Under the pieces are notes generated by a model that worked only from the letters and a program-made list of their open reading frames with translations, was not told the origin of the DNA and searched no databases. A stretch of 64,000 bases of DNA. Origin: an uncultured Gemmatimonadota bacterium (GTDB lineage Bacteria > Gemmatimonadota > Gemmatimonadetes > Palauibacterales > Palauibacteraceae). The stretch is from assembly GCA_964465015.1 (NCBI GenBank), contig CAYXHP010000148.1, positions 2,072 through 66,071 of the forward strand, written 5' to 3'. Of the stretch, positions 568 through 55,482 are shown piece by piece; the stretch's first letter is position 1; every line of letters starts with the position of its first letter. The position numbers were made by a program, and so were the translations under genes.

Positions 568-2847
568 TCAGTAGCCCCATTCGAAGCGAGGCGTGTAGTC
601 GTCCAGCGTCGAGTACGGCTTCGGCCACGGCAGGTCGTAGCCGAGCGCGTACGCGGCGTGGCGCGTCCAGTAAGGCTCCCACAGGTGGGCCCGGGCCAGG
701 CAGCACAGGTCCGCCCGGCCGGCGGCCAGGATCGTGTTGACGTCCATGTAGGAGGAGATGTTGCCCACCGCCATGGTGTGGATGCCGACCTCGTGCCGGA
801 TCCGGTCGGCGAAGGGCGTCTGGAACTGGCGCCCGTAGCGAGGCTTCTGCCATGGCACCGTCTGGCCGGCCGAGACGTCCACGATGTCGCCGCCCGCCTC
901 CGCGACCCGGCGTGCCACCTCCACCGCGTCGTCGGCGGTCATCCCCCCCGGGGCCCAGTCCACCGCGGAGATCCGGACCGAGATCGGCCGCTCCTCGGGC
1001 CACACCGCCCGCACGGCGCTCAGCACCTCGAGCGGGTAGCGCATCCGGTTCTCGAGCTCGCCCCCGTACTCGTCCTCGCGCTCGTTGGTGAGGGGGGAGA
1101 TGAAGCTGGCCAGGAGGTAGCCGTGCGCGAAGTGGATCTCTAGGAGGTCGAAGCCGGCCTCCACGGCCATCTCGGCCGCGCGGACGTACTCGCGCAGCAC
1201 CCGGTCCATGTCGGCTCGGTCCATGGGTCGGGGGACCGGATTCTCGGGCTTCCAGGGAAGGGGAGACGGGGCCAGCACCTCCCAGCCGTCCTCCTCCAGC
1301 GGCTCCACGTCCCCTTCCCAGGAGAGCTTCGTCGCGCCCTTGCGGCCCGCGTGCCCGAGCTGGAGGCCGATCCTGGCCGAGCTCCGGTCGTGCACGAAGT
1401 CGACGATCCGCTTCCACGCGGGAACGTGCTCGGGGAGGTACATGCCCGTGCACCCCGGCGAGATCCGTCCCTGGGCGCTGACGTTCGTCATCTCGCTCAT
1501 CACGAGGCCCGCGCCGCCCACCGCCCGGCTCCCCAGGTGCACCAGGTGCCAGTCGTCGGGTGTCCCGTCCACGGCCGAGTACTGGCACATGGCCGACACG
1601 ACCACGCGGTTCTCGAGCACGAGACCTCGAAGCCGGAACGGGGTGAACATCGGCGGGGGCGGCGGATCCGTCCGGATGGCGACGCCCGACTGCTCCGCGG
1701 CCCGGCCGGCGAACCAGCGGTCCACATCCGCGGTGAATGTCGGGTCGCGCATCCGCAGGTCCTCGTGCGTGATGCGGAGGCTCCGGGTGAGGAGCCCGAA
1801 AGCGAACTGGAGCGGCTCGTCGTCCATGTAGCGCTCGGTGCCCTCGAACCATTCCAGGCTGGCGCGGGCGGCGCGCTGCAGGCTCTCGACGTCGGGCCGC
1901 CGCGCCTCCTCGTAGGCCGGGAGCGCACGGCACGGCTGGTTCCCGTGCGCGGTCAGCGCATCCCGGAGCGCGATGGCATCGATCATGGCGATGCGCGTAC
2001 CCGAGCCCACCGAGAAGTGGGCGGTGTGCGCCGCGTCCCCGATGAGCACCGTGTTCCCGTGCCACCATCGACCGGTGCGCAGGGTCGGAAAGTGCCGCCA
2101 GATGGAGCGGTTCCGGATGAGCGGGTGCCCCTCGAGCTCCTCCTCGAACAGGTCGGCGCAGAAGGCGGCGGCCGCCTCTTCGTCGTCCTCCGGCAGGCCC
2201 GTGGCCGCCCACGTCTCATCGCGCGCCTCGACGATGAAGGTCGAGTGCGCCTTCCCGTCCCTGGTCGGCTCGTACTGGTAGGCGTGCACGCGCCACAGTC
2301 CGTGCCGGTCCTCGCGGAAGTAGAACGTGAAGGCCCGGAAGGGACGCGTCGTGCCGAGCCACACGAAGCGGTTGGGCCGGAGGTCGATGGTCGGCTGGTA
2401 ACGCTCCGGGTGGAGCCCGCGGACCGTGCTGTTCACCCCGTCGGCCGCCACGAGGAGGTCGGCCTCCTCCCACGGCGAGAGATCGGTGACGTCGACGCCG
2501 TGCCGGAGGTCCACGCCCAGCTCGCGAGCCCGGGCCGAGAGGATCTCGAGCAGGGTCGAGCGGGCGAGGCCCGAGAAGCCGTGTCCGGTGGAGCGCAGGC
2601 ACGCCCCCCGGTAGTGGATGTCGATGTCGTCCCAGTGGTGGAAGTGGCGGGTGATCTCCGCGTAGCTGGTCGGGTCGGCGGCGGCGATCTCCTCCAGCGT
2701 GGCATCCGAGAACACGACCCCGAAGCCGTAGGTGGCGCCGGGCGGGTTGCGCTCCAGCACCGTGACCTCGTGCGTCTCGTCCTGGAGCCGCATGAGGATG
2801 GAGAAGAAGAGCCCGGCGGGCCCGCCCCCGACGCAGACGATCCTCAC
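568..2847 (-). CDS. Bifunctional flavoprotein with an N-terminal FAD-dependent aromatic monooxygenase domain and a C-terminal Old Yellow Enzyme-type FMN reductase. Family of 2-aminobenzoyl-CoA monooxygenase/reductase and salicylyl-CoA 5-hydroxylase. GTG start at 2847..2845.
   Basis: The N-terminal part reads [15 protein letters not shown] (GxGxxG Rossmann) ...[16 protein letters not shown]. The C-terminal part reads [13 protein letters not shown]...[32 protein letters not shown]...VRISAVDW, an OYE TIM-barrel. It is about 760 aa. The 1252-aa ORF on the track is this gene plus upstream out-of-frame junk. GTGA overlap with the upstream ACAD stop. Confidence 0.85.
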
Positions 2848-4154
2848 GCCGGCTCCCCGGCCGCGGCGCCGCCGGCGCGCGGGCTCACCCGTTTGGCCCC
2901 GGTACCGTCCGGGCCCGTCTCCTCGGCCCCGCCGCCACGCCGGGTCGCCTCCACCAGGTGGCCCGCGATGATGAGGCGCTGGATCTCCGTGGTCCCCTCG
3001 TAGATCCGTAGCGCCCGCACCGACCGGTACAGCCGGTCCACCGGGTGGTCGGCCAGGACGCCGCGCCCTCCCAGGATCTGGACGGCTTCGTCCACGATCC
3101 TCTGCGCCGCCTCGGTCGCGTGCGCCTTGGCCATGGCCGACTCGACCGTGGTCCGCTCGGCGCCGCCGTCCCGCTCCCACGCGGCCCGGTAGGTGAGGAG
3201 ACGCGCGGCCGTCAGCTCGGTGGACATGCGGGCGAGCTTGTCCTGGACGAGCTGGAAATCGGCCAGCGGTCGACCGAACTGGCGGCGGGAGACGGCGTGG
3301 AAGAGGGCTTCCCCCAGCGCCCGTGCCGCCATGCCGCAGGCGGCGGCCGCCACCGTGGGTCGAAGCCGGTCCAACGTGGCGAGGCCGATCCCGAGCCCCC
3401 GGCCCTCCTCGCCGATGCGGGCCGCGGCCGGGACCCGGCAGCCGTCGAGCTCGATCTCGCCGAGCGGGTGAGGGGAGGAGAGGACCTGCGGCCCGGCGAA
3501 CCGGAGGCCGGGGGCCCCGGCCGGGACCACGAAGGCCGACACGCCCCGCCGCCCCGCCCCCGGGTCCGTGGCCGCGAACACCACGTAGAAGTCCGCGATC
3601 CCCGCGTTCGAGATGAACGCCTTGCGGCCGTCCAGGACGTAGTCGTCCCCGTCGCGAACGGCCCGCGTGGTCAGCGAGGCCACGTCGGACCCCGCCTCCG
3701 GCTCGGTCATGGCGAAGGCGCCCATGGCCCGCCCCCGCACCGCCGGTCCCAGCCACCGCTGGCGCGGCTCGCACTCGCCGGCCAGCACCAGGGGAGTCGC
3801 GGCCAGTCCCTGGAGGGCGAACACCGCGTCGGCGAGCGGGGAGGCGCCGGCGAGCGCCTCGCGCACGAGGCAGCAGGCCCGGAAATCCTGCGCCGCGATC
3901 GGACCCAGCCAGCCCCCGTCGCCGAGGAGCTCGAGCAGGTCGCGGGCCTCGCGGCGCGCCGCCGCGTCGTCGGCCGGCTCGGGCCTCGACGCGATCTCGC
4001 GCGCGCACATCCTTGATGCCTTCCCGGCCAGCTCGAGGTGACGCTTCTCCAGGAAGGCGCGTACCGGGGATGGGTCGGGGATCGCCGTTTCGCTCCCGAT
4101 GCCGGTGCCCCCTCCCACGTTCGCCGGCCGGCCGCGGAGCTTGTCGTCGGTCAT
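2844..4154 (-). CDS. Acyl-CoA dehydrogenase
   Basis: Motifs [23 protein letters not shown] and [16 protein letters not shown]. The true ATG is at 4154..4152 (MTDDKLRG...) and overlaps the stop of the upstream hydratase as ATGA. The track ORF extends upstream as Arg/Pro junk. Confidence 0.85.
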
Positions 4155-4981
4155 TCGAACCGCGTCTCCCGCTTCTCCACGAAGGCCTCGTAGGACTCGC
4201 GGAAGTTGGGATTCTGCATGCACACGGCCTGGACCTTGGCCTCCGCTTCGAGCGCGCTGTCCAGGTCCAGGATCGCTTCCCGGTTGAGCGCGTCCTTGGT
4301 GACCTCGAGGGCGAAGGAGGGCCCACGGGCGAGCTTCTCGGCCAGCTCGCGCGCTTCGCCGACCACCCGGTCGGCCGGGACGACGCGGTTGTAGAGGCCG
4401 ATGCGGTGCGCCTCGGCGGCGTCGATGAAATCGCCGGTCATGAGGAGCTCGGTGGCCCGGCCCAGGCCCACGATCCGCGGCAGGAGCCACGAGGCGCCCA
4501 TGTCGGCCCCGGAGAGCCCAACCCGGGTGAACAGGAAGGCGATCTTCGCGGTCTCGGACGCGATGCGGAGGTCGCACGCCGACGCGATGACCGCCCCGGC
4601 CCCGGCCACGGTCCCGTTCAGGGCGGCCACGACCGGCCGCCGGCAGGCCCGGATCGAGCCGATGAGGTCGCAGGTGAGGCGCGTGAAGGCGAGGAGGCCC
4701 TGGAAGTCACGCTCGAACAGGCGTCCGATGATGTCCTCCACGTCCCCTCCGGAGCAGAAGCCCCGGCCGCGGCCGGTGAGGAGGACGGACCGCACGCCGG
4801 GCTCCGTGTCCAGCGCCCGGAAGGCGTCCCGCAGCTCCTCGTACACCTCGAACGTGAGGGCGTTGAGCCGCTCGGGGCGATTCAGCGTGATCGTGGCCAC
4901 CGAGGTGGCCTCGTCGTGCTCGTACAGGAAGGACGTGGGTTCGATGGGCATCCGGCTCTCCGGTTCAGGATCCGTCCCCAT
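4151..4981 (-). CDS. Enoyl-CoA hydratase/isomerase (crotonase fold). Alternative start at 4951 (MPIEPTSF...).
   Basis: [12 protein letters not shown]...[12 protein letters not shown] (oxyanion-hole motif) ...[12 protein letters not shown]...[17 protein letters not shown]. Confidence 0.85.
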
Positions 4982-5420
4982 GGGTGGTCCGGGGCGGTGG
5001 CGCGGTGGCGGCTTCCCCGGGCGGCAGCACGGCGGTGGCCTCGATCTCGATCACCGCTCCCTCGTCGACGAGGCCGGTGACCTCCACCACGGCCATGGCC
5101 GGGTAGTGCCGGCCCATGAGCTCGCGCCACGTGGCTCCGAGCGGCCCGAGGGAGGCCCGGTATTCGTCGAGGTCCGTCACGTAGACGGTCATGCGTCCGA
5201 TGTGGGTCGGCCCTCCGCCGGCCTCGCCGACGACCGCCAGGACGTGGGACAGGGCACCGCGAAACTGGGCGGCGAGCCCTTCGCCGCGGATGCGGCCGTC
5301 CGCATCCCGGTCCGTCTGTCCCGCCACGAACACGAGGCGTCCGCCCGCCGGGGCCACCAGACCGTTGTTCCAGCCGCGGGGCTCCCCGAGCGCCTCCGGG
5401 TTCACGATCCGGAAGCTCAC
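4965..5420 (-). CDS. ridA: RidA/YjgF/TdcF-family protein (reactive-intermediate enamine/imine deaminase). GTG start at 5420.
   Basis: VSFRIVNPEALGEPRGWNNGLVAPAGGRLVFVAGQTDRDADGRI...MTVYVTDLDEY...PAMAVVEVTGLVDEGAVIEIEATAVL. It has a ~19 aa Pro/Ala-rich C-terminal tail. GTGA overlap with the stop of the upstream SDR. Confidence 0.8.
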   Translation of the reverse strand: MSFRIVNPEALGEPRGWNNGLVAPAGGRLVFVAGQTDRDADGRIRGEGLAAQFRGALSHVLAVVGEAGGGPTHIGRMTVYVTDLDEYRASLGPLGATWRELMGRHYPAMAVVEVTGLVDEGAVIEIEATAVLPPGEAATAPPPRTTHGDGS

Positions 5421-42647: not shown

Positions 42648-43516
42648 CGCCCGAGCCACGGAGATCGCCCCCGGCGCGCGTCGACCTCCATCTCCACAGC
42701 CTCGCCTCCGATGGAACCGAGGCACCCGCCGCGGTGGTACGAAGAGCGGCCGGGCTGGGATTGGCCGGGATCGCGCTGACCGATCACGACACCGTGGCCG
42801 GCGTGGAGGAGGCTGCGGCCGAGGCGGCTCGCCTGGGGCTCGAGTTTCTGGTCGGCGCCGAGCTCTCGGCCAACGAGCCCGGCCGGTCGATCCACCTCCT
42901 GGCCTACGGATTCGACCCTTCGGACCCGTCCCTGTCGGAGTACCTGGAGGCCTACCGGAGGGACCGCGTTCGCAGGGCCCGGGCCATCGTCCGAAGGCTG
43001 CAGGAGCTGGACGTGCCGCTGGCCTGGGAAGAGGTGGAGAGCCGCGCCGTGGGCGGCGTTCCGACGCGGGCTCACGTGGGACGCGCCCTGGTCGAGGAGG
43101 GGCTGGTTTCCGGCGAGCGGGCGGCGTTCCGGCTGTATCTCTCGCGCGGGAAGCCGGCCTTCGTCGAGAAGCGGCCCTCGCCGCCCGCGGAGGTGATCGA
43201 GCGGGTGCACGCGGCCGGGGGCGTGGTGCTGGTCGCCCATCCGGGTCGCGAGCACGGCCTGGACGATCTACGGCGCTGGCTGGCCCAGGGGCTGGACGGG
43301 GTGGAAGTGTTGCACCCCTCGCACGATGAGGGGATGCGGCGGACCCTGCGGGCGCTGGCGGAGGCGGAGGGGCTGCTCACCGGCGGGGGCTCGGACTGGC
43401 ACGGCCGGGACGGAGCGCACGCTCCCCAGCCGGGTTCCGAGGAGGTACCCCTCGCCTGGCTGGAGGCGATCCGCTCGCGGACCATGGAACAGCAGGGGAT
43501 GGACGGGCGAGCATGA
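42644..43516 (+). CDS. PHP-domain metal-dependent phosphoesterase (TrpH/YciV-like)
   Basis: VDLHLHSLASDGT...IALTDHDT... Confidence 0.8.
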   Translation: MTPEPRRSPPARVDLHLHSLASDGTEAPAAVVRRAAGLGLAGIALTDHDTVAGVEEAAAEAARLGLEFLVGAELSANEPGRSIHLLAYGFDPSDPSLSEYLEAYRRDRVRRARAIVRRLQELDVPLAWEEVESRAVGGVPTRAHVGRALVEEGLVSGERAAFRLYLSRGKPAFVEKRPSPPAEVIERVHAAGGVVLVAHPGREHGLDDLRRWLAQGLDGVEVLHPSHDEGMRRTLRALAEAEGLLTGGGSDWHGRDGAHAPQPGSEEVPLAWLEAIRSRTMEQQGMDGRA

Positions 43517-44478
43517 CGACGCACGATCACGACATGATCATCGTGGGCGCGGGCCCGGCGGGGCTGTGCGCCGCCCTCTATGCGGGACGCTCCGAGGTGG
43601 ATGCCGTGCTCCTGGAGCAGGGCGCTCCCGGCGGACAGCTCCTCCTCACCGAGCTGGTCGACGACTATCCCGGCCTCGAGGAGGTGGGCGGGATGGAGCT
43701 GGCGGAGCGCATGAGCGACCATGCGGCCAAGTTCGGCGTGGAGGCGACCTATGGCGTGGTCGAGTCCATCCGCCGGGACGCCGAGGGCCGATTTCTCGTC
43801 TCGGTGTCGGGCGGAGAGGTGTATCGCGCCCCCGCCGTCGTCCTCACCGCGGGAGGGACCCCGCGCCGGCTCGGCGTCTCCGGCGAGGAGGAATTCCGGG
43901 GCAGGGGGGTCAGCTACTGCGCCATCTGCGACGGCGCCTTCTTCAAGGGACAGACCATCGCCGTGATCGGTGGTGGCGACTCGGCCGTCGAGGAAGGCGA
44001 GTTTTTGACCCGCTATGCCGAGAAGGTCTACATCGTCCATCGCCGTGACGCCTTCCGGGCGCAGGCCGTCCTCCAGGACCGCCTGCTCAAGAACCCGCGC
44101 GTGGAGGTGATCTGGAACACGGTCGTCGAGGAGATCCGCGGGGACGATTCCGGCGTGACCTCCCTGGCCCTCCGGGACGTGGAGACCGAGGTTTCGACGG
44201 AACTCCCCGTGACGGGAGTGTTTATATTCATCGGGTTCGAGCCGAACACGACCGTGCTCGGCGAGCACGTCGAGCACGACGCGGGGGGCTACCTGCTCAC
44301 GGACCGGGACATGCGGACGTCGATCCCCGGACTGTTTGCGGCGGGCGATGTGCGCTCCCAGCTCGTCCGGCAGATCACGACGGCCGTGGGTGACGCCACC
44401 ACGGCGGTGTTCGCGGCCGAGAAGTACCTCGTGGATCAAGCCGAGCGGGAAGGCGCCGGGGCCGAAGCCCCGGTATGA
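43513..44478 (+). CDS. trxB: Thioredoxin-disulfide reductase
   Basis: MIIVGAGPAGLCAALYAGR...GVSYCAICDGAFF (CxxC)...IAVIGGGDSAVEEG...GLFAAGDV. Confidence 0.9.
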   Translation: MTTHDHDMIIVGAGPAGLCAALYAGRSEVDAVLLEQGAPGGQLLLTELVDDYPGLEEVGGMELAERMSDHAAKFGVEATYGVVESIRRDAEGRFLVSVSGGEVYRAPAVVLTAGGTPRRLGVSGEEEFRGRGVSYCAICDGAFFKGQTIAVIGGGDSAVEEGEFLTRYAEKVYIVHRRDAFRAQAVLQDRLLKNPRVEVIWNTVVEEIRGDDSGVTSLALRDVETEVSTELPVTGVFIFIGFEPNTTVLGEHVEHDAGGYLLTDRDMRTSIPGLFAAGDVRSQLVRQITTAVGDATTAVFAAEKYLVDQAEREGAGAEAPV

Positions 44479-44870
44479 ATCGACACACGGGCGGTGCGAG
44501 CATGGATGCGACGGTACGATCGGGACAGGACGAGGGCCTCGGGATCACGCTGTCGGAGCTGGCGGCGGAAGAGGTCCGGAACTTCATGGCCGAGGAAGAG
44601 ATGACCGGGGAGTCCGCCGGGCTGCGCGTGAGCGTGGTTCCGGGCGGGTGCTCGGGCTTCGAGTACGCCCTCAACATCGAGCCCGAGGCCCGCGAGGACG
44701 ACTTCGTCATCGGGAGCCACGGCGTGCGCCTGTTCGTGGATCCCTTCTCCGCCCAGTATCTGGAGGGCGTGGCGATCGACTACAAGCGCACCTTCCAGGG
44801 CTCCGGGTTCACGTTCGACAACCCCAACGCCACGGGCGGTTGCGGCTGCGGGAGCTCCTTCGCGGTCTGA
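44475..44870 (+). CDS. HesB/IscA/ErpA-family iron-sulfur cluster insertion protein
   Basis: GLRVSVVPGGCSGFEY...FDNPNATGGCGCGSSF. ATGA overlap with the trxB stop. Confidence 0.85.
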   Translation: MNRHTGGASMDATVRSGQDEGLGITLSELAAEEVRNFMAEEEMTGESAGLRVSVVPGGCSGFEYALNIEPEAREDDFVIGSHGVRLFVDPFSAQYLEGVAIDYKRTFQGSGFTFDNPNATGGCGCGSSFAV

Positions 44871-45561: not shown

Positions 45562-45755
45562 GCGAGGCGCCGGCCGCGGCCCGGCTTCGAACCCCCATGG
45601 AGCCCCGGCGCGCTGCGGAGCCCGCGAGGGAGAGCGCCGCGCTGTCGCCCTGCCTGCGCTGCGGGACGGCGATCCCGGTCCGCCGCATGGGCTGCCGCGG
45701 AGGGCGCTGTCCCCACTGCGGTCACCCCTATCCCCACGGCGACTGCTCCGACTGA
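45558..45755 (+). CDS. Small Zn-ribbon protein (65 aa)
   Basis: ATGA-coupled to the MBL stop. CLRCG...(16 aa)...CPHCGHPYPHGDC gives four Cys in two CxxC pairs. Confidence 0.45.
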   Translation: MSEAPAAARLRTPMEPRRAAEPARESAALSPCLRCGTAIPVRRMGCRGGRCPHCGHPYPHGDCSD

Positions 45756-45756
45756 A

Positions 45757-46986
45757 ATGGACGAGGTGCGTGACGACGGCCAGCGGGCGGAAGGGCGGGA
45801 GACTCGCTCGCCGTCGCCCGAGGCGCTCGAGGGTGCGGCCGACGCGGCCGGACCCATGGAGCCGGGCGAGACGACCGTCGATCAGGCCCTCCGCCTCGCC
45901 GAGCTGCTCGGAGCCCTCGAGGAGGCCGGGGACGTGCTCGTCCTCACGCACGACAACCCGGACCCCGATGCCATCGCATCGGCGGCGGCGCTCGCCTTTC
46001 TGCTCCGGGAGGAGGCCGGCGTCACGACGACACTGGCCTTCGGAGGGATCGTCGGGCGCGCCGAGAACCGGGCGTTGATCGCGGAGCTGGGCGTCGACTT
46101 CCATCGCATGGGCATCCTGGAGGTCGCTCCGGGCACGGCCGTGGCGCTGGTGGACACACAACCGAGGACCGGGAACAACTCGCTCCCCGAGGGGCGGATC
46201 GCCTCCATCGTGATCGACCACCACCCGGTGCGGCCGGAGGCGGCGGCCACGACCTTCTCCGATGTCCGGCCGGCGTACGGGGCCAGCTGCTCGATCCTGG
46301 TGGAATACCTGCGCGCGGCGGGACTCGAGCCCGAGCGCCCGCTGGCCACGGCGCTGTTCTACGGGATCCAGTCGGAGACGATGGACCTGGGCCGCGAGGT
46401 CTCTGGCCCGGACGTGGAGGCGAGCCTGTACCTGTACCCGCGCTCCGACCCCGCGGCGATCTCGCGCATACGCCACGCCCGCGTGCCGCCCACCTACCTG
46501 CAGTCCGTACACGAGGCCATCGAGCGGGCCCGGCTGTACAACGGTGTCATGTGCGTCCCCATGGGGCGGCTCGACTACCCGGACCTGGGAGCCGAGCTGG
46601 CCGACATGTTCATGCGGGTGGACGGGGTGGAATGGACCATCGCCTCGGGACGCTACCACGATGAGCTCCTCCTCTCGGTGCGTACCTACGAGCAGCAGGC
46701 CCACGCCGGGGACATGGTTCGACGCGTGATACGCGACCGGGGCTCGGCCGGCGGCCACGGCATGCTGGCCGGGGCGCAGGTGCCGCTCCGGGGGCGGAGC
46801 GACGCCGAGGTGGATCAGCTGGTGGAGACCCTGTTCGAGGAGTTTCGGGCCGAGCTCGGCGTGGCGGACCGAGAAGCGCGCCCGATCATCGACGCCGACC
46901 TCTCGGCCATCCCGCCGGGCGAGGAGCCGGGGGGCGGGGAGCCGGCGGACGGTGGGCGCCGGGCCGCCCCCGAGCCCGGGGAATGA
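45757..46986 (+). CDS. DHH/DHHA1 phosphoesterase (NrnA-like)
   Basis: LVLTHDNPDPDAIASAAA...IVIDHHPV...GGHGMLAGAQ. Confidence 0.8.
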   Translation: MDEVRDDGQRAEGRETRSPSPEALEGAADAAGPMEPGETTVDQALRLAELLGALEEAGDVLVLTHDNPDPDAIASAAALAFLLREEAGVTTTLAFGGIVGRAENRALIAELGVDFHRMGILEVAPGTAVALVDTQPRTGNNSLPEGRIASIVIDHHPVRPEAAATTFSDVRPAYGASCSILVEYLRAAGLEPERPLATALFYGIQSETMDLGREVSGPDVEASLYLYPRSDPAAISRIRHARVPPTYLQSVHEAIERARLYNGVMCVPMGRLDYPDLGAELADMFMRVDGVEWTIASGRYHDELLLSVRTYEQQAHAGDMVRRVIRDRGSAGGHGMLAGAQVPLRGRSDAEVDQLVETLFEEFRAELGVADREARPIIDADLSAIPPGEEPGGGEPADGGRRAAPEPGE

Positions 46987-47594
46987 TCCGGATCGGCCTC
47001 ACGGGCACGCTCGGAGCCGGGAAGAGCACGGTCGGGAGGCTGTTCGAGCGGTGGGGGGCGTGGCGGGTCGACGCCGACGACCTGGCCCGGGAAGCCGTGG
47101 CTCCGGGCTCCAGGGCGCTGGCAGCGATCCGCGACCGGTTCGGTGACGATGTCCTGGCGGCCGACGGCGGCCTCGACCGGGCCGCCGTACGCCGGCGCGT
47201 ATTCGGCGCTCCCGCCGAGCGCGAAGCGCTGGAGGCGATCGTCCACCCGGCCGTCCAGGCGCTTCGCGCCCGGGAGCTGGACGCGGCGCGGCGCGCGGGC
47301 GCCGCCGTGCTGGTGGCCGAAATACCGCTCCTGTTCGAGACCGGTCTCCAGGACGACTACGACGTCGTGGTGGTCGTGGACGCTCCCGCCGAGCTCCGGC
47401 GCCGCCGCATCGAGGGCGAGCGCTCTCTCGCGCCGGGGAGCTTCGACGCCATCGAAGCCGCCCAGTGGCCCGCGGCCCGAAAGCGCGAGGCGGCCGACCT
47501 CGTGCTCGTGAACGATGGCGACCTGGCCACACTCGAGCGGCGCGCCCGGGCGGCGTGGGAGTCGATCACCGGCCGGGAGAACGACCGGGCATGA
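46983..47594 (+). CDS. coaE: Dephospho-CoA kinase
   Basis: MIRIGLTGTLGAGKSTVG...ATGA overlap on both sides. Confidence 0.9.
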   Translation: MIRIGLTGTLGAGKSTVGRLFERWGAWRVDADDLAREAVAPGSRALAAIRDRFGDDVLAADGGLDRAAVRRRVFGAPAEREALEAIVHPAVQALRARELDAARRAGAAVLVAEIPLLFETGLQDDYDVVVVVDAPAELRRRRIEGERSLAPGSFDAIEAAQWPAARKREAADLVLVNDGDLATLERRARAAWESITGRENDRA

Positions 47595-48277
47595 CGGCGC
47601 CGGGCGGCGGCGACGCGACCGAGTCCGGCACGTGGGCGGTCGATCTCCACATGCACACGCGTGCATCGCGCGATTGCACCACCGAGCCGCGCGCGCTCCT
47701 GGAACGGGCGCGGGCCATCGGACTGGACCGGATCGCGATCACGGACCACGACCGGATCGAGGGAGCGCTCGAGGCGCGCGACCTCGATCCGCAGCGCGTG
47801 ATCGTGGGCGAGGAGGTGCGAACCTCCGAGGGCCTCGACCTCATCGGCCTCTTCCTGGAACGGTGGATCGAGCCGGGAGGCGACTTCCGCCGCGTGTCCG
47901 AAGCCATCCGCGCCCAGGGCGGGGTGGTCTACCTGCCCCATCCCTTCGACGCCCGTCGGGGCACGGACGAGGAGTTCCTGGAGTCCGTGGCCGACTGCGT
48001 GGACGCCGTGGAGGCGTTCAACGCCCGCTGTCACGACCCGACCGCCAACGACCGGGCTCGGGCCTGGGGGGAGATCCGGGGGCTCCCCCTCGGTGCGGGC
48101 AGCGACGCGCACACCCTGGCGGAGCTGGGGAGGGGGCGCGTCCACCTGCCCCCCTTCAAAAGCCCGAACGAGTTCCTGCGCGCGCTGGCCCGAGGACGGA
48201 TCGAGGGCCACACCTCCGGCCGCTGGGTGCACCTGGCGTCCACCTGGGCCAAACTGCGCGGCCAGCTGCCTCTCTGA
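47591..48277 (+). CDS. PHP-domain metallohydrolase, second copy
   Basis: AVDLHMHTRASRDC...IAITDHD... Confidence 0.75.
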   Translation: MTAPGGGDATESGTWAVDLHMHTRASRDCTTEPRALLERARAIGLDRIAITDHDRIEGALEARDLDPQRVIVGEEVRTSEGLDLIGLFLERWIEPGGDFRRVSEAIRAQGGVVYLPHPFDARRGTDEEFLESVADCVDAVEAFNARCHDPTANDRARAWGEIRGLPLGAGSDAHTLAELGRGRVHLPPFKSPNEFLRALARGRIEGHTSGRWVHLASTWAKLRGQLPL

Positions 48278-50286: not shown

Positions 50287-51327
50287 GTGACCGCGGCGCG
50301 CGGATCCGGCGACAGGCCGGTGAGCCGCCCTGGGCCCGAGCGCCGCGAGGCGCTGGTCGGGCTCCGGGATGTGCTCGAGCGCTGCCACAGGGTGGCGCTC
50401 ACCACCCATGTGAACGCGGACGGGGACGGCGCGGGGAGCGAGGTGGCGGCGGCGCTGTATCTGGAGGAGAGGGGACTCGAGGTCGCGATCGTGAACCCGA
50501 CGCCCTTTCCGCCCATGTTCGAGTTCCTCCTGGACGGCCGGAAGACCTGGACGCCCGAGCGGGAGGAGGGACGCCGGGCGCTCGAGGACGCCGACGCCAT
50601 CCTCATCCTCGACACCTCGGAGGCGTCGCGCATCGGCTCGGTGGCCGAGCGGATCGATGGCCTCAGGGTGCTGGTGATCGATCACCATCCGCCTACGCCG
50701 CGCGCCCTCGGCGAAACGGTGGTGCTCGATCCGACGGCCTGCGCCACCGGCGAGCTGGTCTACGACCTCCTCGCGCTGGAGGGTCGGCGTCCGAACGTCG
50801 CCCAGGCGCGCGCGCTCTACGTGGCGATCGTCACGGACACGGGTTCCTTCCGGTTCGGCAACACCACGCCCCGCGCTCACGCCATCGCCGCCGAGCTGCT
50901 CCGGGCCGGCGTAGACGTCGAGGGCATGTTCCGCCGGCTGTTCGCGCGCTACACGGAGTCGGGCCTCGAGCTCCTGAAGAGGACGCTGGCGACGCTCCAG
51001 GTGGATCGAGAGCACGCCATCGCGTGGGTGACGTTGCGCGACGTGGATGTCCAGGACACGGGCGCGGACGCCGAGGACCGTGAGGGCCTGGTGGAGTATC
51101 CGCGGCGACTGGACGGGGTCGAGGTGGCGATCCTGTTCCGGGAGCTCGCCGATGGCCGGACCAAGATCTCCGTGCGATCCAACGGCCGGGTGGACGTGGC
51201 GGAGGTGGCGCGGGACTTCGGCGGAGGAGGACACCCGCAGGCGGCCGGAGCCCTCGTGGCCGAGCCGCTGGACGTCACCCGGCGCCGGGTGGTCGAGCGG
51301 GTGCGTCGCGCCGTGGAGGAAGCCTGA
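50287..51327 (+). CDS. DHH/DHHA1 bifunctional oligoribonuclease / pAp-phosphatase (NrnA-like), second paralogue
   Basis: GTG start. VALTTHVNADGDGAGSE...LVIDHHPP...FGGGGHPQAAGA. Confidence 0.8.
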   Translation: MTAARGSGDRPVSRPGPERREALVGLRDVLERCHRVALTTHVNADGDGAGSEVAAALYLEERGLEVAIVNPTPFPPMFEFLLDGRKTWTPEREEGRRALEDADAILILDTSEASRIGSVAERIDGLRVLVIDHHPPTPRALGETVVLDPTACATGELVYDLLALEGRRPNVAQARALYVAIVTDTGSFRFGNTTPRAHAIAAELLRAGVDVEGMFRRLFARYTESGLELLKRTLATLQVDREHAIAWVTLRDVDVQDTGADAEDREGLVEYPRRLDGVEVAILFRELADGRTKISVRSNGRVDVAEVARDFGGGGHPQAAGALVAEPLDVTRRRVVERVRRAVEEA

Positions 51328-51395
51328 GCGCGGCCGACGCGGACCGGGCCGCGCCCTGCGCGGAGTCGTCCGCCCGGGGCGGCGCCCCGGACGAG

Positions 51396-51902
51396 GTGCC
51401 GGGCCGCTCGGGAGACGTGACCGGCGATCTGCCCGAACCGGTTCCAGCTCCGGTGGCTCGCCGGCTCGTGCAGGTCGCCAGCCGGGTCGCTCCGCCGGTG
51501 ATCGAGGAGATCTGGATCTTCCCCCCTCTGCCGGACCTGGAGGAATCCTCCGAATTCGTCGTCTTCACCCGCCGGGAAGAGGATGGCCGCCTTCGCCTCT
51601 ACACGGCGCGGCCACGAGCCCGAGCGGCGGACCCGGACGCGGAGGAGGTCACGGCGCACGGGGCCGTCCCACCGGACCGGGTGCCTCGCCTCCTCGCACG
51701 CTTCCAGCGACGCGTCGGGACCGAGCACGAGCCCGTGCACGTGGCGCTGGGCGGCTCGGAACGGCGGTGGCGCGCCCTCGTCCGACTCGCCTTCCCGGAG
51801 GTGGCCGAGGGGGATGCGCCCGTCGGAGAGGCGGCGGAACCGGGCGCCGGCCCCCGCTCCGCGGCCGGCGCGGACGTTGATGGGGGCGGCACGAATCCTT
51901 AG
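51396..51902 (+). CDS. Hypothetical protein
   Basis: Non-repetitive sequence with >80% GC at third codon positions. No family recognised. Confidence 0.4.
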   Translation: MPGRSGDVTGDLPEPVPAPVARRLVQVASRVAPPVIEEIWIFPPLPDLEESSEFVVFTRREEDGRLRLYTARPRARAADPDAEEVTAHGAVPPDRVPRLLARFQRRVGTEHEPVHVALGGSERRWRALVRLAFPEVAEGDAPVGEAAEPGAGPRSAAGADVDGGGTNP

Positions 51903-51978
51903 CTTCATCGCGATCGTGGCGGGCCGTCCGCGGACGGCTCCGGACGGTGAACGCGAGCGATGGCGGCGGCGGCGATCC

Positions 51979-52431
51979 GTGGGTGAGGGTGAGGCACAAA
52001 GGCGACCGGCCGAGGAGCTCGAAGCGGAGCTCCGCGAGGCCCTCGAGGCCGACGGGCACCGTTTCACGGCACAGCGCGCGGCCGTGTACGACGTGTTGGA
52101 CGGCTCCCTCTCGCACCCCACCGCGGACGAGATCTTCACGTCCGTGCGCGAGCGGCTCCCCGACATCAGCCTGGCCACGGTCTACAAGGCGCTCGAGGCC
52201 TTCGTGAGCTGCGGCCTGGCGAGAAAGCTCACCCTCGGAGACGGCCCCGCTCGCTACGATGGTCGTACGGACGAGCACGAGCACGTGCGCTGTCTGAGTT
52301 GCGGCCGGGTGTCCGATGTGGACGATGTCAGCCTCGCCTCCTGGGTCGATTCCGTGGCGAGGAAGACGGACTTCCGAATCGTCAACTACCGCCTGGAGCT
52401 CCTGGGACACTGCTCGATCTGTCGAGGCTGA
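51979..52431 (+). CDS. Fur-family transcriptional regulator
   Basis: GTG start. HPTADEIFTSVRERLPDISLATVYKAL...GRTDEHEHVRCLSCGRV...GHCSICRG. Confidence 0.75.
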   Translation: MGEGEAQRRPAEELEAELREALEADGHRFTAQRAAVYDVLDGSLSHPTADEIFTSVRERLPDISLATVYKALEAFVSCGLARKLTLGDGPARYDGRTDEHEHVRCLSCGRVSDVDDVSLASWVDSVARKTDFRIVNYRLELLGHCSICRG

Positions 52432-52579
52432 CGCCCGGGTCCGAGCCGACGATCGAGCGCCCGGGCCCGATCCGCGCGCCACGCCGGTGCCGCCGCCCTC
52501 CACGGTCACGATCCGGAGCGAGGGGCGTCGTGCGCGCCGCTCGCGCTCCCGCACCCACCACGCCTGACCGGAGGATCCA

Positions 52580-53143
52580 GTGCCGTTCGAAGCGGTGAGT
52601 TTCGTCCCATCGCGGATGTTCCTTACGTCCGGCGTGGGGATCCACAGGGAGCGACTCTCCTCGTTCGAGATGGCCCTTCGGGATGCACGGATCGCCCGCT
52701 ACAACCTGGTCGGGGTCTCCTCCATCTTCCCTCCCCATTGCGAAATGGTGGACGTGGAGGAGGGGCTCGATCGACTCCAGCCGGGACAGATCGTGTTCTC
52801 CGTCATGGCTCGCTCCGAGACCAACGAGCCCAGCCGCCTCATCGCCTCGAGCATCGGCCTGGCGATCCCCAAGAACCCGGAGCAGTTCGGGTATCTCTCC
52901 GAGCACCACAGCTACGGTGAGACGGCCGGCCACGCCGGGAATTACGCGGAGGACCTCGCCGCCAGCATGCTCGCCACCGTGCTCGGGATACCGTTCGACC
53001 CCGACGCCGCCTGGGACGAGCAGCGCCAGGTTTGGAGCCTCTCCGACCAGATCGTGAGGACCACGAACATCACGGCGGCGGTCGAGGGCCCGGACGATGG
53101 GCGCTGGGCGACCGTCGTCTCGGCCGCCATCTTCTGTGGCTGA
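52580..53143 (+). CDS. pdaD: Pyruvoyl-dependent arginine decarboxylase (archaeal/chlamydial PdaD/AaxB type)
   Basis: NLVGVSSIFPP contains the Ser-Ser self-cleavage site that generates the pyruvoyl group. About 187 aa. Confidence 0.75.
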   Translation: MPFEAVSFVPSRMFLTSGVGIHRERLSSFEMALRDARIARYNLVGVSSIFPPHCEMVDVEEGLDRLQPGQIVFSVMARSETNEPSRLIASSIGLAIPKNPEQFGYLSEHHSYGETAGHAGNYAEDLAASMLATVLGIPFDPDAAWDEQRQVWSLSDQIVRTTNITAAVEGPDDGRWATVVSAAIFCG

Positions 53144-53146
53144 TCG

Positions 53147-54121
53147 TTGACCTCGGCCCGCTGTCCCTTCCCCGTGGAGCTCTCCGGCCTGTCGTGGACC
53201 ACGGGAGAGAACTTCATGGGCCACGGGGCCGATGCTCCCGATTGGAACGCCGCGCGCGCCGTGGTCCTGCCGGTACCCTACGAGGCCACGACCAGCTACG
53301 GGGCCGGGACGAAGGAGGGTCCGGGGGCGATCCTGTCCGCGTCCCGCTACGTGGAGCTGTACGACGAGGAGCTGGACGCCGAGCCGTGGAAGGCCGGGAT
53401 CTGCACGCTTCCCTACCTGGAGCTTCCCGGCTCGGGTCCCGAGGAGGCGGTGCGGACGCTGCGGGAGGCGTACACCCGTCTCCTGGGCGTATCCGCGGAC
53501 CGCTTCGTCGTCATGCTCGGCGGCGAACACTCGATCACGAGCGCCCCGGTGCACGCCTGGCTGGATCGGCTGGGCGGAGAGCTGTCGGTCCTGCAGCTCG
53601 ATGCCCATTCCGACCTGCGGGAGAGCTACCACGACACGCCGTGGAGCCACGCGTGCGTGATGCGGCGCGTGCTGGACCGGACCTCGCGGATCACGGCCGT
53701 CGGCATCCGGTCGCTCACGGGGGAGGAGCGCCGGCTCATCCGGGACGTGGGAATCACCACGATCTTCGCCGAGGAACTGCGGGACGATGGCTGGGTCGAG
53801 CGGGCGCTGGACAGTCTCGGGCCCAACGTGTACGTGACGTTCGATGTCGACTTCTTCGACCCCGCGCTCCTGCCGGCCACGGGAACGCCCGAGCCGGGAG
53901 GCGGGAGCTGGTGGGATGCGCTGGACCTGCTGCGGGCCGTATTCCGGGAGCGGAACGTCGTCGGCGCCGACATCGTCGAGCTCGCGCCCGGGCTCGGCTC
54001 GCACTCCTCCGGCGTGGTGGCCGCGAAGCTGGCCTACAAGATGATCGGCTACCGCTTCCCGGAGGCCGGGGCCGCCGTGACGGCAGACGCCGAGGGAGCT
54101 CCCCCGGCGGGCACGGATTGA
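53147..54121 (+). CDS. speB: Agmatinase (arginase-fold ureohydrolase)
   Basis: MLGGEHSIT...LDAHSDL...VTFDVDFFDPA...GGGSWWD...VGADIVELAP. Confidence 0.8.
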   Translation: MTSARCPFPVELSGLSWTTGENFMGHGADAPDWNAARAVVLPVPYEATTSYGAGTKEGPGAILSASRYVELYDEELDAEPWKAGICTLPYLELPGSGPEEAVRTLREAYTRLLGVSADRFVVMLGGEHSITSAPVHAWLDRLGGELSVLQLDAHSDLRESYHDTPWSHACVMRRVLDRTSRITAVGIRSLTGEERRLIRDVGITTIFAEELRDDGWVERALDSLGPNVYVTFDVDFFDPALLPATGTPEPGGGSWWDALDLLRAVFRERNVVGADIVELAPGLGSHSSGVVAAKLAYKMIGYRFPEAGAAVTADAEGAPPAGTD

Positions 54122-54134
54122 GCCGGCGGCGTCC

Positions 54135-54863
54135 ATGAGTCTCGGCATCTTCGTCGCCTTCCTGGCCGGGATCCTCTCCTTCCTCTCGCCCTGCGTCCTG
54201 CCGCTCGTACCGTCCTACCTGTCCTTCGTGGCGGGCGTCGGAATGGAGGAGCTCGAGAACGGCAGCGGCGAGGTCCGCCGGACGGCCTTCGTGCACGCCC
54301 TCCTGTTCGTGGCCGGCTTCAGCCTGGTGTTCATGGGCCTGGGCGCCTCGGCCAGCGTGTTCGGTCACGTTCTGCACGACTACCAGCGGTGGATCGCGCG
54401 CATCGGGGGCGCTCTGGTGATCCTGTTCGGCCTCCACCTCCTCGGGATCACGCCCCTCCGTCCTCTCCTGCGCGAGAAGCGCGTGCAGCTGCGCAGCCGT
54501 CCGGTCGGGATGCTGGGGGCGGTGGTCGTGGGCGTGACCTTCGGTGCCGGCTGGACGCCGTGCATCGGACCGGTGCTGGGAGGGATCCTGACCTACGCGG
54601 CCACGCAGGAGAAGCTGGCCGAGGGCGTGGGGCTCCTGGCGGTCTACTCCGCCGGCCTGGCGCTTCCGTTCCTCGCGGCGGCGGCGGCGCTGTCGCGGTT
54701 CCTCACCGTGTTCCGCCGCTTCCGGCGTTACATCCCCTGGGTGGAGCGGGTGAGCGGCGTCCTGCTGGTGGCCGTGGGAGTCCTGCTCGTGAGTGGGAAG
54801 TTCACGGTGCTCGCGTCGTGGGCGACGCGCTTCACGCCCGACTTCCTGCTGCGGAGGCTTTGA
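54135..54863 (+). CDS. ccdA: Cytochrome c-type biogenesis thiol:disulfide transporter CcdA (DsbD-core family)
   Basis: SPCVLPLVPSYLSFVAG...WTPCIGPVLGGIL. Confidence 0.85.
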   Translation: MSLGIFVAFLAGILSFLSPCVLPLVPSYLSFVAGVGMEELENGSGEVRRTAFVHALLFVAGFSLVFMGLGASASVFGHVLHDYQRWIARIGGALVILFGLHLLGITPLRPLLREKRVQLRSRPVGMLGAVVVGVTFGAGWTPCIGPVLGGILTYAATQEKLAEGVGLLAVYSAGLALPFLAAAAALSRFLTVFRRFRRYIPWVERVSGVLLVAVGVLLVSGKFTVLASWATRFTPDFLLRRL

Positions 54864-54905
54864 GGTCCGACCCACGCGCCTCCGGCGGCGGCCGGATCTC
54901 CGCCG

Positions 54906-55280
54906 TCAGCCGCAGGCCTCGTGTAGGGCGGCGTGGAGCTGCCCGCCGGTGAGGGGCTTGATCAGGTAGGCCGACGCTCCCGCCCCGAGGCAGTCCCGCT
55001 TCGTCTTCTCGTCGTTCTCTCCCGTGAGAACCACCAGCGCCGAGCTGGGGGCCGCTTTCCGGAGGCGCTCTATGAGCTCGGGGCCGGACAGGTCGGGCAG
55101 GCCGATGTCGGCCACGATGGCGGCGGGCGCGGCGTCCTCCGTGAGCCGCTGGAGCGCCTCCGCGCCGCTGCCGGCGACCTCCACCGACAGCCCGCGCGCG
55201 CCGAGCACCACCTGGAATGCGCTCCGCAGGCCCTCGTCGTCCTCGATCAGGAGAATGCGAGCCGCGTCCGGGAGCGGCAT
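54906..55280 (-). CDS. Stand-alone response-regulator receiver domain (CheY-like)
   Basis: ARILLIEDDEGLRSAF...IVADIGLPDLSG...AYLIKP. Confidence 0.75.
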   Translation of the reverse strand: MPLPDAARILLIEDDEGLRSAFQVVLGARGLSVEVAGSGAEALQRLTEDAAPAAIVADIGLPDLSGPELIERLRKAAPSSALVVLTGENDEKTKRDCLGAGASAYLIKPLTGGQLHAALHEACG

Positions 55281-55482
55281 GGATCAGCCCTCTCGCGCCG
55301 GGCGATCCCCGGCGGCGGCAGCGTCCGGCCACGCCGGCGCTGTCCGGTACCGGAGCCGCGTGGCATCCGAACGGGCGGATTCGGGAATCGAGGGAACGGC
55401 CGGCAACGGAAAGTCCTCTACGATGCCCTCGTTCAGAGGTGGGAGCCCCGTCGTCGGGCCCCCGATTTCGCGAAGCGACAGA

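Follow-up and report, generated by a model that had tools for sequence, protein, structure and literature searches.

The locus described here raises two questions: by what route its bacterial host makes agmatine and putrescine, and whether the Fur-family regulator encoded just upstream has any part in controlling that synthesis. It lies at positions 51,979 to 54,121 of a stretch of contig CAYXHP010000148.1 (the whole stretch that was analyzed, 64 kb in length, is called the window), and its core is a pair of adjoining genes, pdaD, for a pyruvoyl-dependent arginine decarboxylase proenzyme, and speB, for an agmatinase. Conversion of arginine to agmatine and then to putrescine is a standard route of putrescine biosynthesis, and a previous sequence-only reading of this DNA had assigned that route to the pair; it is still the simplest reading. 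To this our analysis adds one mild new point, namely that the pair stands behind, and is probably co-transcribed with, a regulator resembling PerR rather than a classical iron-sensing Fur.

The window is Gemmatimonadota DNA, from a bacterium of soil type, with a G+C content of 67-77% (measured in 2-kb windows). The closest genomes are metagenome-assembled genomes (MAGs) of Gemmatimonadota and Gemmatimonadales, whose PdaD proteins are 67-95% identical to the one encoded here.

An arginine decarboxylase with an intact self-processing site

The gene pdaD (52580..53143, plus strand) starts with a GTG codon preceded by the Shine-Dalgarno sequence GGAGGA (52570-52575) and encodes 187 residues that match the PF01862 family with 193.7 bits (E 2.5e-57; cutoff 22.7). 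The protein also scores above the TIGR00286 cutoff (115.1 against 106.95) and narrowly under that of NF009064 (205.7 against 207). When it is aligned with the structures of the Methanocaldococcus jannaschii enzyme PvlArgDC (1n2m and 2qqd), residues N42, S47, S48 and E108 fall on N47, S52, S53 and E109, the positions at which Asn47, Ser52-Ser53 and Glu109 were mutated in PDB entries 2QQD, 1N2M and 2QQC. The serine pair is set in the motif G-V-S47-S48-I-F-P-P (serine codons 52718-52723), and its placement on Ser52-Ser53 bears out the self-processing site that had been read from the sequence. Lack of conservation of the pair had been named as grounds for refutation; instead, all four residues are invariant, both across the 36 Gemmatimonadota sequences of alignment A3 and in alignment A2, whose 13 diverse PdaD sequences come from Gemmatimonadota, Zixibacteria, Ignavibacteria, Latescibacteria, Nitrososphaerales and M. 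jannaschii. One further position differs between the archaeal enzyme and this one. Asp35 of M. jannaschii, which we take to be the acidic residue that binds the guanidinium group of the substrate, is matched by Glu30 in the window protein; Glu also stands here throughout the 36 Gemmatimonadota sequences, and Gln in the Nitrososphaerales sequence; the exchange of Asp35 for Glu30 reads as a conservative substitution.

The predicted fold agrees with this assignment. An AlphaFold2 (AF2) model of PdaD was obtained with a predicted local distance difference test score (pLDDT) of 87.8 and a predicted template modelling score (pTM) of 0.83, and when it was searched against the PDB with Foldseek, every one of the 12 matches with E<=0.001 was M. 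jannaschii PvlArgDC (best E 1.7e-15; target-normalised TM scores 0.82-0.92), the next match having an E of 0.036. Because the Ser-Ser site is aligned and invariant and the fold matches PvlArgDC, the PdaD assignment stands. The proenzyme would be expected to cleave itself between Ser47 and Ser48, giving a predicted beta chain (residues 1-47) and alpha chain (48-187), with Ser48 converted to the pyruvoyl cofactor, and the mature enzyme would then decarboxylate arginine to agmatine.

A separate observation concerns the relationships of the protein. The window PdaD shares about 59% of its residues with PdaD of Nitrososphaerales, the soil ammonia-oxidising archaea, but only about 30% with that of M. 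jannaschii (the archaeal loci, L011-L020 and L025, come from Nitrososphaerales and an unclassified Thermoproteota MAG), which hints at a PdaD subfamily shared by bacteria and thaumarchaea, or at transfer between the domains.

The agmatinase and its junction with pdaD

The product of speB (53147..54121, plus strand; TTG start, 324 residues; PF00491, 216.1 bits) passes the agmatinase equivalog model TIGR01230 with 216.9 against a cutoff of 174.3 and is under the cutoffs of the arginase, formimidoylglutamase and PRK02190 models. Its closest PDB relatives are the agmatinases 3pzl, 3lhl and 1wog. The binuclear-manganese motifs are intact (GGEH128S, from residue 125; D152-A-H154-S-D156; D233-V-D235-FFDP) and align with those of 3pzl and 3lhl.

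The start of speB matters for the spacing between the two genes. The reading frame opens directly after the pdaD stop codon, and TTG 53147 lies 3 nt downstream; GTG 53174 and ATG 53216 are alternative starts, and the automatic gene call on the identical public contig takes the last of these, giving a protein of 301 residues. An N-terminal block upstream of ATG 53216 (W..x.NF[L/M]G) is kept as protein in 11 orthologues; the methionine of ATG 53216 is leucine in the more distant orthologues, the three closest retaining NFMG or NYMG; and the closest relatives, L002 and L003, have GTG at the position of TTG 53147. We prefer the 3-nt junction because this upstream block is conserved and because of the GTG in L002 and L003, and the public call is probably truncated. 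An agmatinase 3 nt behind pdaD, as originally proposed, is thereby retained, and in all orthologues the two genes either lie close together or overlap. SpeB, translationally coupled to pdaD through this junction, would hydrolyse agmatine to putrescine and urea.

Family scores, conserved residues and, for PdaD, the fold lead us to hold both enzyme identities with high confidence. Genes for other polyamine enzymes (speA, adiA, speC, speE, speD, hss and speY) were absent from the roughly 38 open reading frames (ORFs) of the window scanned with Pfam.

A regulator with the ligands of PerR

The regulator gene (51979..52431, GTG start, 150 residues) lies on the same strand as pdaD and is separated from it by 148 nt (52432..52579), just as had been reported. 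Its product belongs to the Fur family (Pfam FUR, PF01475, 96 bits, E 2.2e-27), and its scores on the Fur equivalog models are far under the cutoffs. Its closest relative in the PDB is Bacillus subtilis PerR (2fe3, 97.4 bits), the best Fur scoring 70.7. Residues H46, D94, H100, H102 and D113 correspond to H37, D85, H91, H93 and D104 of B. subtilis PerR, and the CxxC pairs C105/C108 and C145/C148 align with C96, C99, C136 and C139, which form the structural Cys4 zinc site. The ligand set of PerR is His37, Asp85, His91, His93 and Asp104, whereas Fur proteins have Glu at position 104, and Asp104 has been proposed to decide reactivity toward H2O2 (PMC4866751). These ligands and both CxxC motifs are kept in 30/30 aligned Gemmatimonadota homologues. 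Glu at the Asp104 position occurs only in the proteins of two loci, L028 and L029; the window protein and the 30 orthologues have Asp. Judged by its best matches and these residues, the regulator is probably of the PerR type rather than the Fur type.

The start of the regulator varies between gene calls. NCBI and Logan give the protein of 150 residues from 51979, JGI gives one of 183 residues from ATG 51880, and an in-frame GTG at 51915 is a further possible start. Some homologues carry the JGI label 'Fe2+ or Zn2+ uptake regulation protein'.

The two exceptional loci are informative about the link with pdaD. Their PdaD proteins are 64-66% identical to that of the window, whereas the regulators in the same slot (L028:1952-2455 and L029:5403-5882) are only 28-34% identical to the window regulator. 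Both belong to the classical Fur type: Glu occupies each of the O-donor positions, and their best PDB matches are the Fur proteins of Campylobacter and Magnetospirillum. Because a Fur-family gene is retained ahead of pdaD even though its subtype differs, a functional link between the two is mildly favored.

Conservation and transcription of the cluster

Together the perR-like regulator, pdaD, speB and a ccdA-like gene make up one four-gene cluster on the same strand. The last gene (54135..54863) begins 13 nt past speB and encodes a CcdA-like DsbD_TM thiol-disulfide transporter (PF02683, 67.4 bits). The order regulator-pdaD-speB is kept in 11/11 pdaD-bearing Gemmatimonadota loci, including those with different neighbors, and a hypothetical gene (hyp168, below) precedes it in all eight Gemmatimonadota loci of the first scan and in L026, L028 and L029. 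The gene ccdA follows speB in L002-L004, L006-L009 and L026, and in L029 a PLD gene is inserted between the two; the contig of L028 stops within the ORF after pdaD. Our analysis indicates that a pyruvoyl-dependent arginine decarboxylase (ADC) with an agmatinase is the common route of the phylum to agmatine and putrescine. The upstream neighbors of pdaD in L028 differ and include, two genes 5' of it, a gene with ArgZ-like (arginine dihydrolase-like) C-terminal domains (L028:491-1591), which is a second arginine-metabolism gene near pdaD in that locus.

A generic scan for promoters and terminators over 51200-55400 gave no match, and a looser promoter pattern, TTGnnn-N16-18-TAnnnT, was used after it. 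With a spacing of 17 or 18 this motif stands at the equivalent position ahead of the regulator gene in 11/14 loci, and in 0/12 of the spacers between regulator and pdaD. The sigma-70-like copy in the window is TTGATG-N17-TAGCTT (51877..51905, plus strand; -35 at 51877-51882, -10 at 51900-51905); the final codons of hyp168, stop codon included, lie within this copy, and in L005-L008 the motif is plainly intergenic. From this motif we infer transcription from a promoter upstream of the regulator, and because it recurs there and not in the spacers, co-transcription of regulator, pdaD, speB and ccdA is suggested; we give it an even chance.

The spacer itself (52432..52579) contains an imperfect palindrome (52436-52469) in addition to the Shine-Dalgarno sequence of pdaD. 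Orthologous spacers range from 3 to about 171 nt (3 nt in L028, 48 nt in L005, 139-171 nt in many loci) and cannot be aligned. Since neither an operator nor a promoter was found in the gap, any link between regulator and pdaD would run through co-transcription or autoregulation. The possibility that the 148-nt spacer holds a riboswitch or a structured RNA leader was also considered and rejected: no Rfam family reached its gathering score in the window, none had E<=10 in 51850-52700, and the spacer folds no better than shuffled sequences (z = +1.15).

It may be added that each of the eight promoter-motif matches in the window, 8/8, lies shortly upstream of a probable gene start (12073(-), 34446, 40289, 48291, 51877, 55508(-), 57563(-) and 59030), several with a -10 of the form TAGnnT; the TTGnnn-TAnnnT matches may reflect a promoter consensus of the phylum.

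The proposed route and its alternatives

The explanation that we consider the best, and on the whole probable, combines the enzyme route with an operon read from the regulator promoter. The cluster would be transcribed mainly from the single recognizable sigma-70-like promoter upstream of the regulator, and the PerR-type regulator would sense peroxide through iron-mediated oxidation of its histidines. PerR and Fur usually autoregulate; if this regulator does so too, oxidative stress would raise putrescine synthesis and CcdA along with the regulator. That pdaD and speB are actually controlled by the regulator is plausible, though in our judgement less likely than not.

Several observations weigh against the operon and its PerR-like control. 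The best NCBIfam match of the regulator is indeed PerR (NF052545), but its score of 117.8 is below the cutoff of 180, a second PerR equivalog model (NF047406) gives 72.9 against 200, and the PerR box TTATAATNATTATAA has no match in the window at <=3 mismatches, a weak result as the phylum's own box may differ; because the equivalog cutoff is missed and no box was found, we call the protein PerR-like and not PerR proper. Nor did the Fur box match anywhere in the window at <=3 mismatches, the canonical consensus used being possibly not that of a phylum with 72% GC. Aligned upstream regions of the regulator genes share only the -35 and -10 elements and no palindrome or operator, their GC-rich palindromes differing from locus to locus, and no conserved operator was found in the regulator-pdaD spacer. 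As for the promoter motif, its count in the window (8) equals that expected by chance from shuffled sequences (7.1 +/- 2.3), and the -35 falls, both here and in the nearest relatives of the window, on the conserved codons for 'DVDGG' at the C-terminus of hyp168. The spacers of L005 and L009 contain a hairpin followed by T-rich sequence, which could be terminators. Finally, the block as a whole, from an SNF transporter, DHH phosphoesterase, hypothetical gene and regulator through to ccdA and an ABC exporter, shows synteny within the phylum, so that adjacency may simply be inherited, and two relatives keep the regulator without pdaD: in Ca. Palauibacter (L031:6001-7361) it is followed by speB, with neither pdaD nor ccdA, and in CP070670.1 (L032:6001-7389) by ccdA, with neither pdaD nor speB. 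Since one relative keeps the regulator beside speB alone and the other beside ccdA alone, it is not dedicated to pdaD.

Several of these observations are what the strongest alternative draws upon. If the adjacency is purely positional, pdaD-speB(-ccdA) would have a promoter of its own, of a type not recognized here, and the regulator would have its targets elsewhere. The phylum-wide synteny, the regulators of L031 and L032, the long spacers (139-171 nt in many loci) with their GC-rich palindromes and terminator-like hairpins, and the lack of an operator in the window would all fit. It accounts less well for a promoter-like motif that recurs upstream of the regulator and never in the spacers, for the 3-nt junction between regulator and pdaD in L028, and for the retention of a Fur-family gene in the slot even as a different subtype, 28-34% identical, in L028 and L029. 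We therefore regard a purely positional arrangement as a substantial possibility, although short of an even chance.

A second alternative leaves the operon aside and concerns the substrate of SpeB. Putrescine is bypassed by way of N1-aminopropylagmatine in Thermus thermophilus and Thermococcus kodakarensis, and SpeB could similarly act mainly on N1-aminopropylagmatine (agmatine aminopropylated by a SpeE-type enzyme whose gene would lie elsewhere), leading to spermidine without putrescine, or on guanidino-homospermidine in the SpeY route. Most ADC-only species have aminopropyltransferases that make N1-aminopropylagmatine, and this may be the default route (PMC11107197), and a speY-speB-pyruvoyl ADC cluster in Caldilinea uses agmatine directly (PMC13625781). 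Against this, no speE, speD, speY (DHS) or hss gene is present in the 64-kb window or the flanks examined, and SpeB passes the agmatinase equivalog model. We think a main role on these other substrates unlikely, and activities of SpeB on agmatine and on N1-aminopropylagmatine are not mutually exclusive.

The sequence-only reading had suggested metal-linked control of polyamine synthesis by Fur and a search for a Fur box in 52432..52579. The Fur-family gene upstream is confirmed, but the protein is PerR-like and not a classical iron Fur, and no operator was found in the gap, where a Fur box has no match at <=3 mismatches. A regulator sensing iron or another metal, which would tie putrescine to metal status (for example as a diamine precursor of siderophores), is in keeping with its membership of the Fur family, with the classical Glu/Glu Fur in the same slot of L028 and L029 and with the JGI names of some homologues; we nevertheless judge it improbable in view of the Asp85/Asp104 ligand set of PerR, which the window protein shares with 30 orthologues, the failure of a Fur box to appear anywhere in the window, and the absence of siderophore-synthetase or iron-uptake genes nearby. 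The weakest alternative, a role for PdaD in acid resistance through arginine:agmatine exchange like that of chlamydial AaxB, to whose enzyme family it belongs (PMC2720952), can be dismissed as extremely improbable, an AaxABC-like system being ruled out by the lack of an adjoining arginine:agmatine antiporter or porin gene and by the translationally coupled agmatinase, which would consume the agmatine.

What the cluster may mean

As enzymology the locus offers little that is new: the pathway, its enzymes and the fact that bacteria have them are established, and the relatives in the phylum are already correctly named. The original impression that such a decarboxylase is unusual for a bacterium overstated its rarity. 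PdaD has at least 7,867 homologues at E<=1e-5 (of 8,000 scored candidates), its relatives are routinely annotated as 'arginine decarboxylase, pyruvoyl-dependent [Gemmatimonadota bacterium]', and loci of Zixibacteria, Ignavibacteria and Latescibacteria (L010, L016, L021 and L023) likewise have pdaD paired with speB. Bacterial ADCs belong to four folds, and the enzymes of two of these are pyruvoyl-dependent (PMC8503589); chlamydial AaxB is a characterized, self-cleaving bacterial pyruvoyl ADC (PMC2720952), and Caldilinea, of the Chloroflexota, has a speY-speB-pyruvoyl ADC cluster (PMC13625781). An ADC of archaeal or chlamydial type in a bacterium is thus a known situation.

Gemmatimonadota are an abundant and poorly studied soil phylum, and the common route to putrescine is of modest value for understanding their physiology. 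A literature search for PerR control of polyamine genes, or for pyruvoyl ADCs in Gemmatimonadetes, found nothing specific. A cluster headed by a PerR-like (in some lineages Fur-like) regulator offers a testable hypothesis, in which polyamine synthesis would be tied to oxidative or metal stress. In its boldest version, a PerR-type sensor would head an operon joining pdaD-speB to the thiol-reductant exporter CcdA, putrescine would be directly induced by peroxide, and the exchange for Fur in some lineages would switch the signal from peroxide to iron; we consider this version speculative and rather unlikely. If it were true, the response of a Gram-negative phylum to oxidative stress would include polyamine production as one of its branches.

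Other features of the window

At all the Gemmatimonadota loci examined, the conserved ORF hyp168 (51396..51902, plus strand) lies directly 5' of the Fur-family gene, with tblastn matches in the same position in L002-L009, L026, L028, L031 and L032. Among 5.8 billion proteins it has 16 homologues, all from Gemmatimonadota and all unnamed or called 'hypothetical'. Two blocks of it are invariant, WIFPPLP...EF...DGR.RLYT and HG.VP..R.PRLL.RF.RR. It matched no Pfam or NCBIfam family, and its AF2 model (pLDDT 74.9) gave no significant fold match in the PDB. On the other side of the cluster, a response-regulator gene (54906..55280, minus strand) is convergent with ccdA.

A few kilobases upstream of the cluster and on the same strand are redox and Fe-S genes. 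One (43330..44478) encodes a Pyr_redox_2 protein similar to thioredoxin reductase, another (44394..44870) a Fe-S assembly protein resembling IscA/ErpA, and genes for DHH and PHP proteins follow (45562..48277). Elsewhere, a stop-free frame of about 1,290 codons (568..4437, minus strand) matches Oxidored_FMN and FAD_binding_3 only in its C-terminal half (residues 658-1263) and overlaps an enoyl-CoA hydratase ORF (4151..5050); it may be more than one gene.

Comparison with known systems

The closest known relatives of the window PdaD within PF01862 include M. jannaschii PvlArgDC (MJ0316; 1MT1, 1N2M, 2QQC and 2QQD) and PdaD of T. kodakarensis. The likeness to PvlArgDC lies in the predicted fold (TM <=0.92) and in the retained equivalents of Asn47, Ser52-Ser53 and Glu109, and the mechanism would be expected to be the same, serinolysis yielding the pyruvoyl cofactor. 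The sequences are nevertheless distant, with about 30% identity over the N-terminal 105 residues and 16-22% in structure-based alignment. The window protein is some 20 residues longer, with an extra helix at about 145-155, and has Glu30 where the archaeal enzyme has Asp35. The setting differs as well: the host is bacterial and pdaD is coupled to speB, whereas archaea also need agmatine for the agmatidine of tRNA-Ile (PMC8503589).

Chlamydial AaxB shares with the window PdaD the family of bacterial self-cleaving pyruvoyl ADCs. Its gene belongs to aaxABC, together with genes for a porin and for the antiporter that exports agmatine; the window pdaD is instead accompanied by an agmatinase and no antiporter.

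The regulator is 39% identical to B. subtilis PerR (2FE3 and 3F8N; 97 bits, alignment A5) and shares its five ligands and both CxxC motifs. It differs in scoring under the NCBIfam PerR equivalog cutoffs, in the absence of an AT-rich PerR box from the window, and in its host, which is a high-GC Gram-negative; OxyR is the usual peroxide sensor in such bacteria. To our knowledge, pdaD, speB and ccdA are not among the known members of the PerR regulon.

The closest counterparts of the gene pair are found in other bacteria. The speY-speB-pylADC cluster of Caldilinea aerophila contains the same adjoining enzymes together with speY, which the window cluster does not have. Identity to the window PdaD is 55-58% for the PdaD proteins encoded at the loci from Zixibacteria, Ignavibacteria and Latescibacteria, Caldilinea having been left out of this comparison. 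Set against these other PdaD-SpeB clusters, the combination of a Fur-family gene upstream and ccdA downstream is seen only in Gemmatimonadota.

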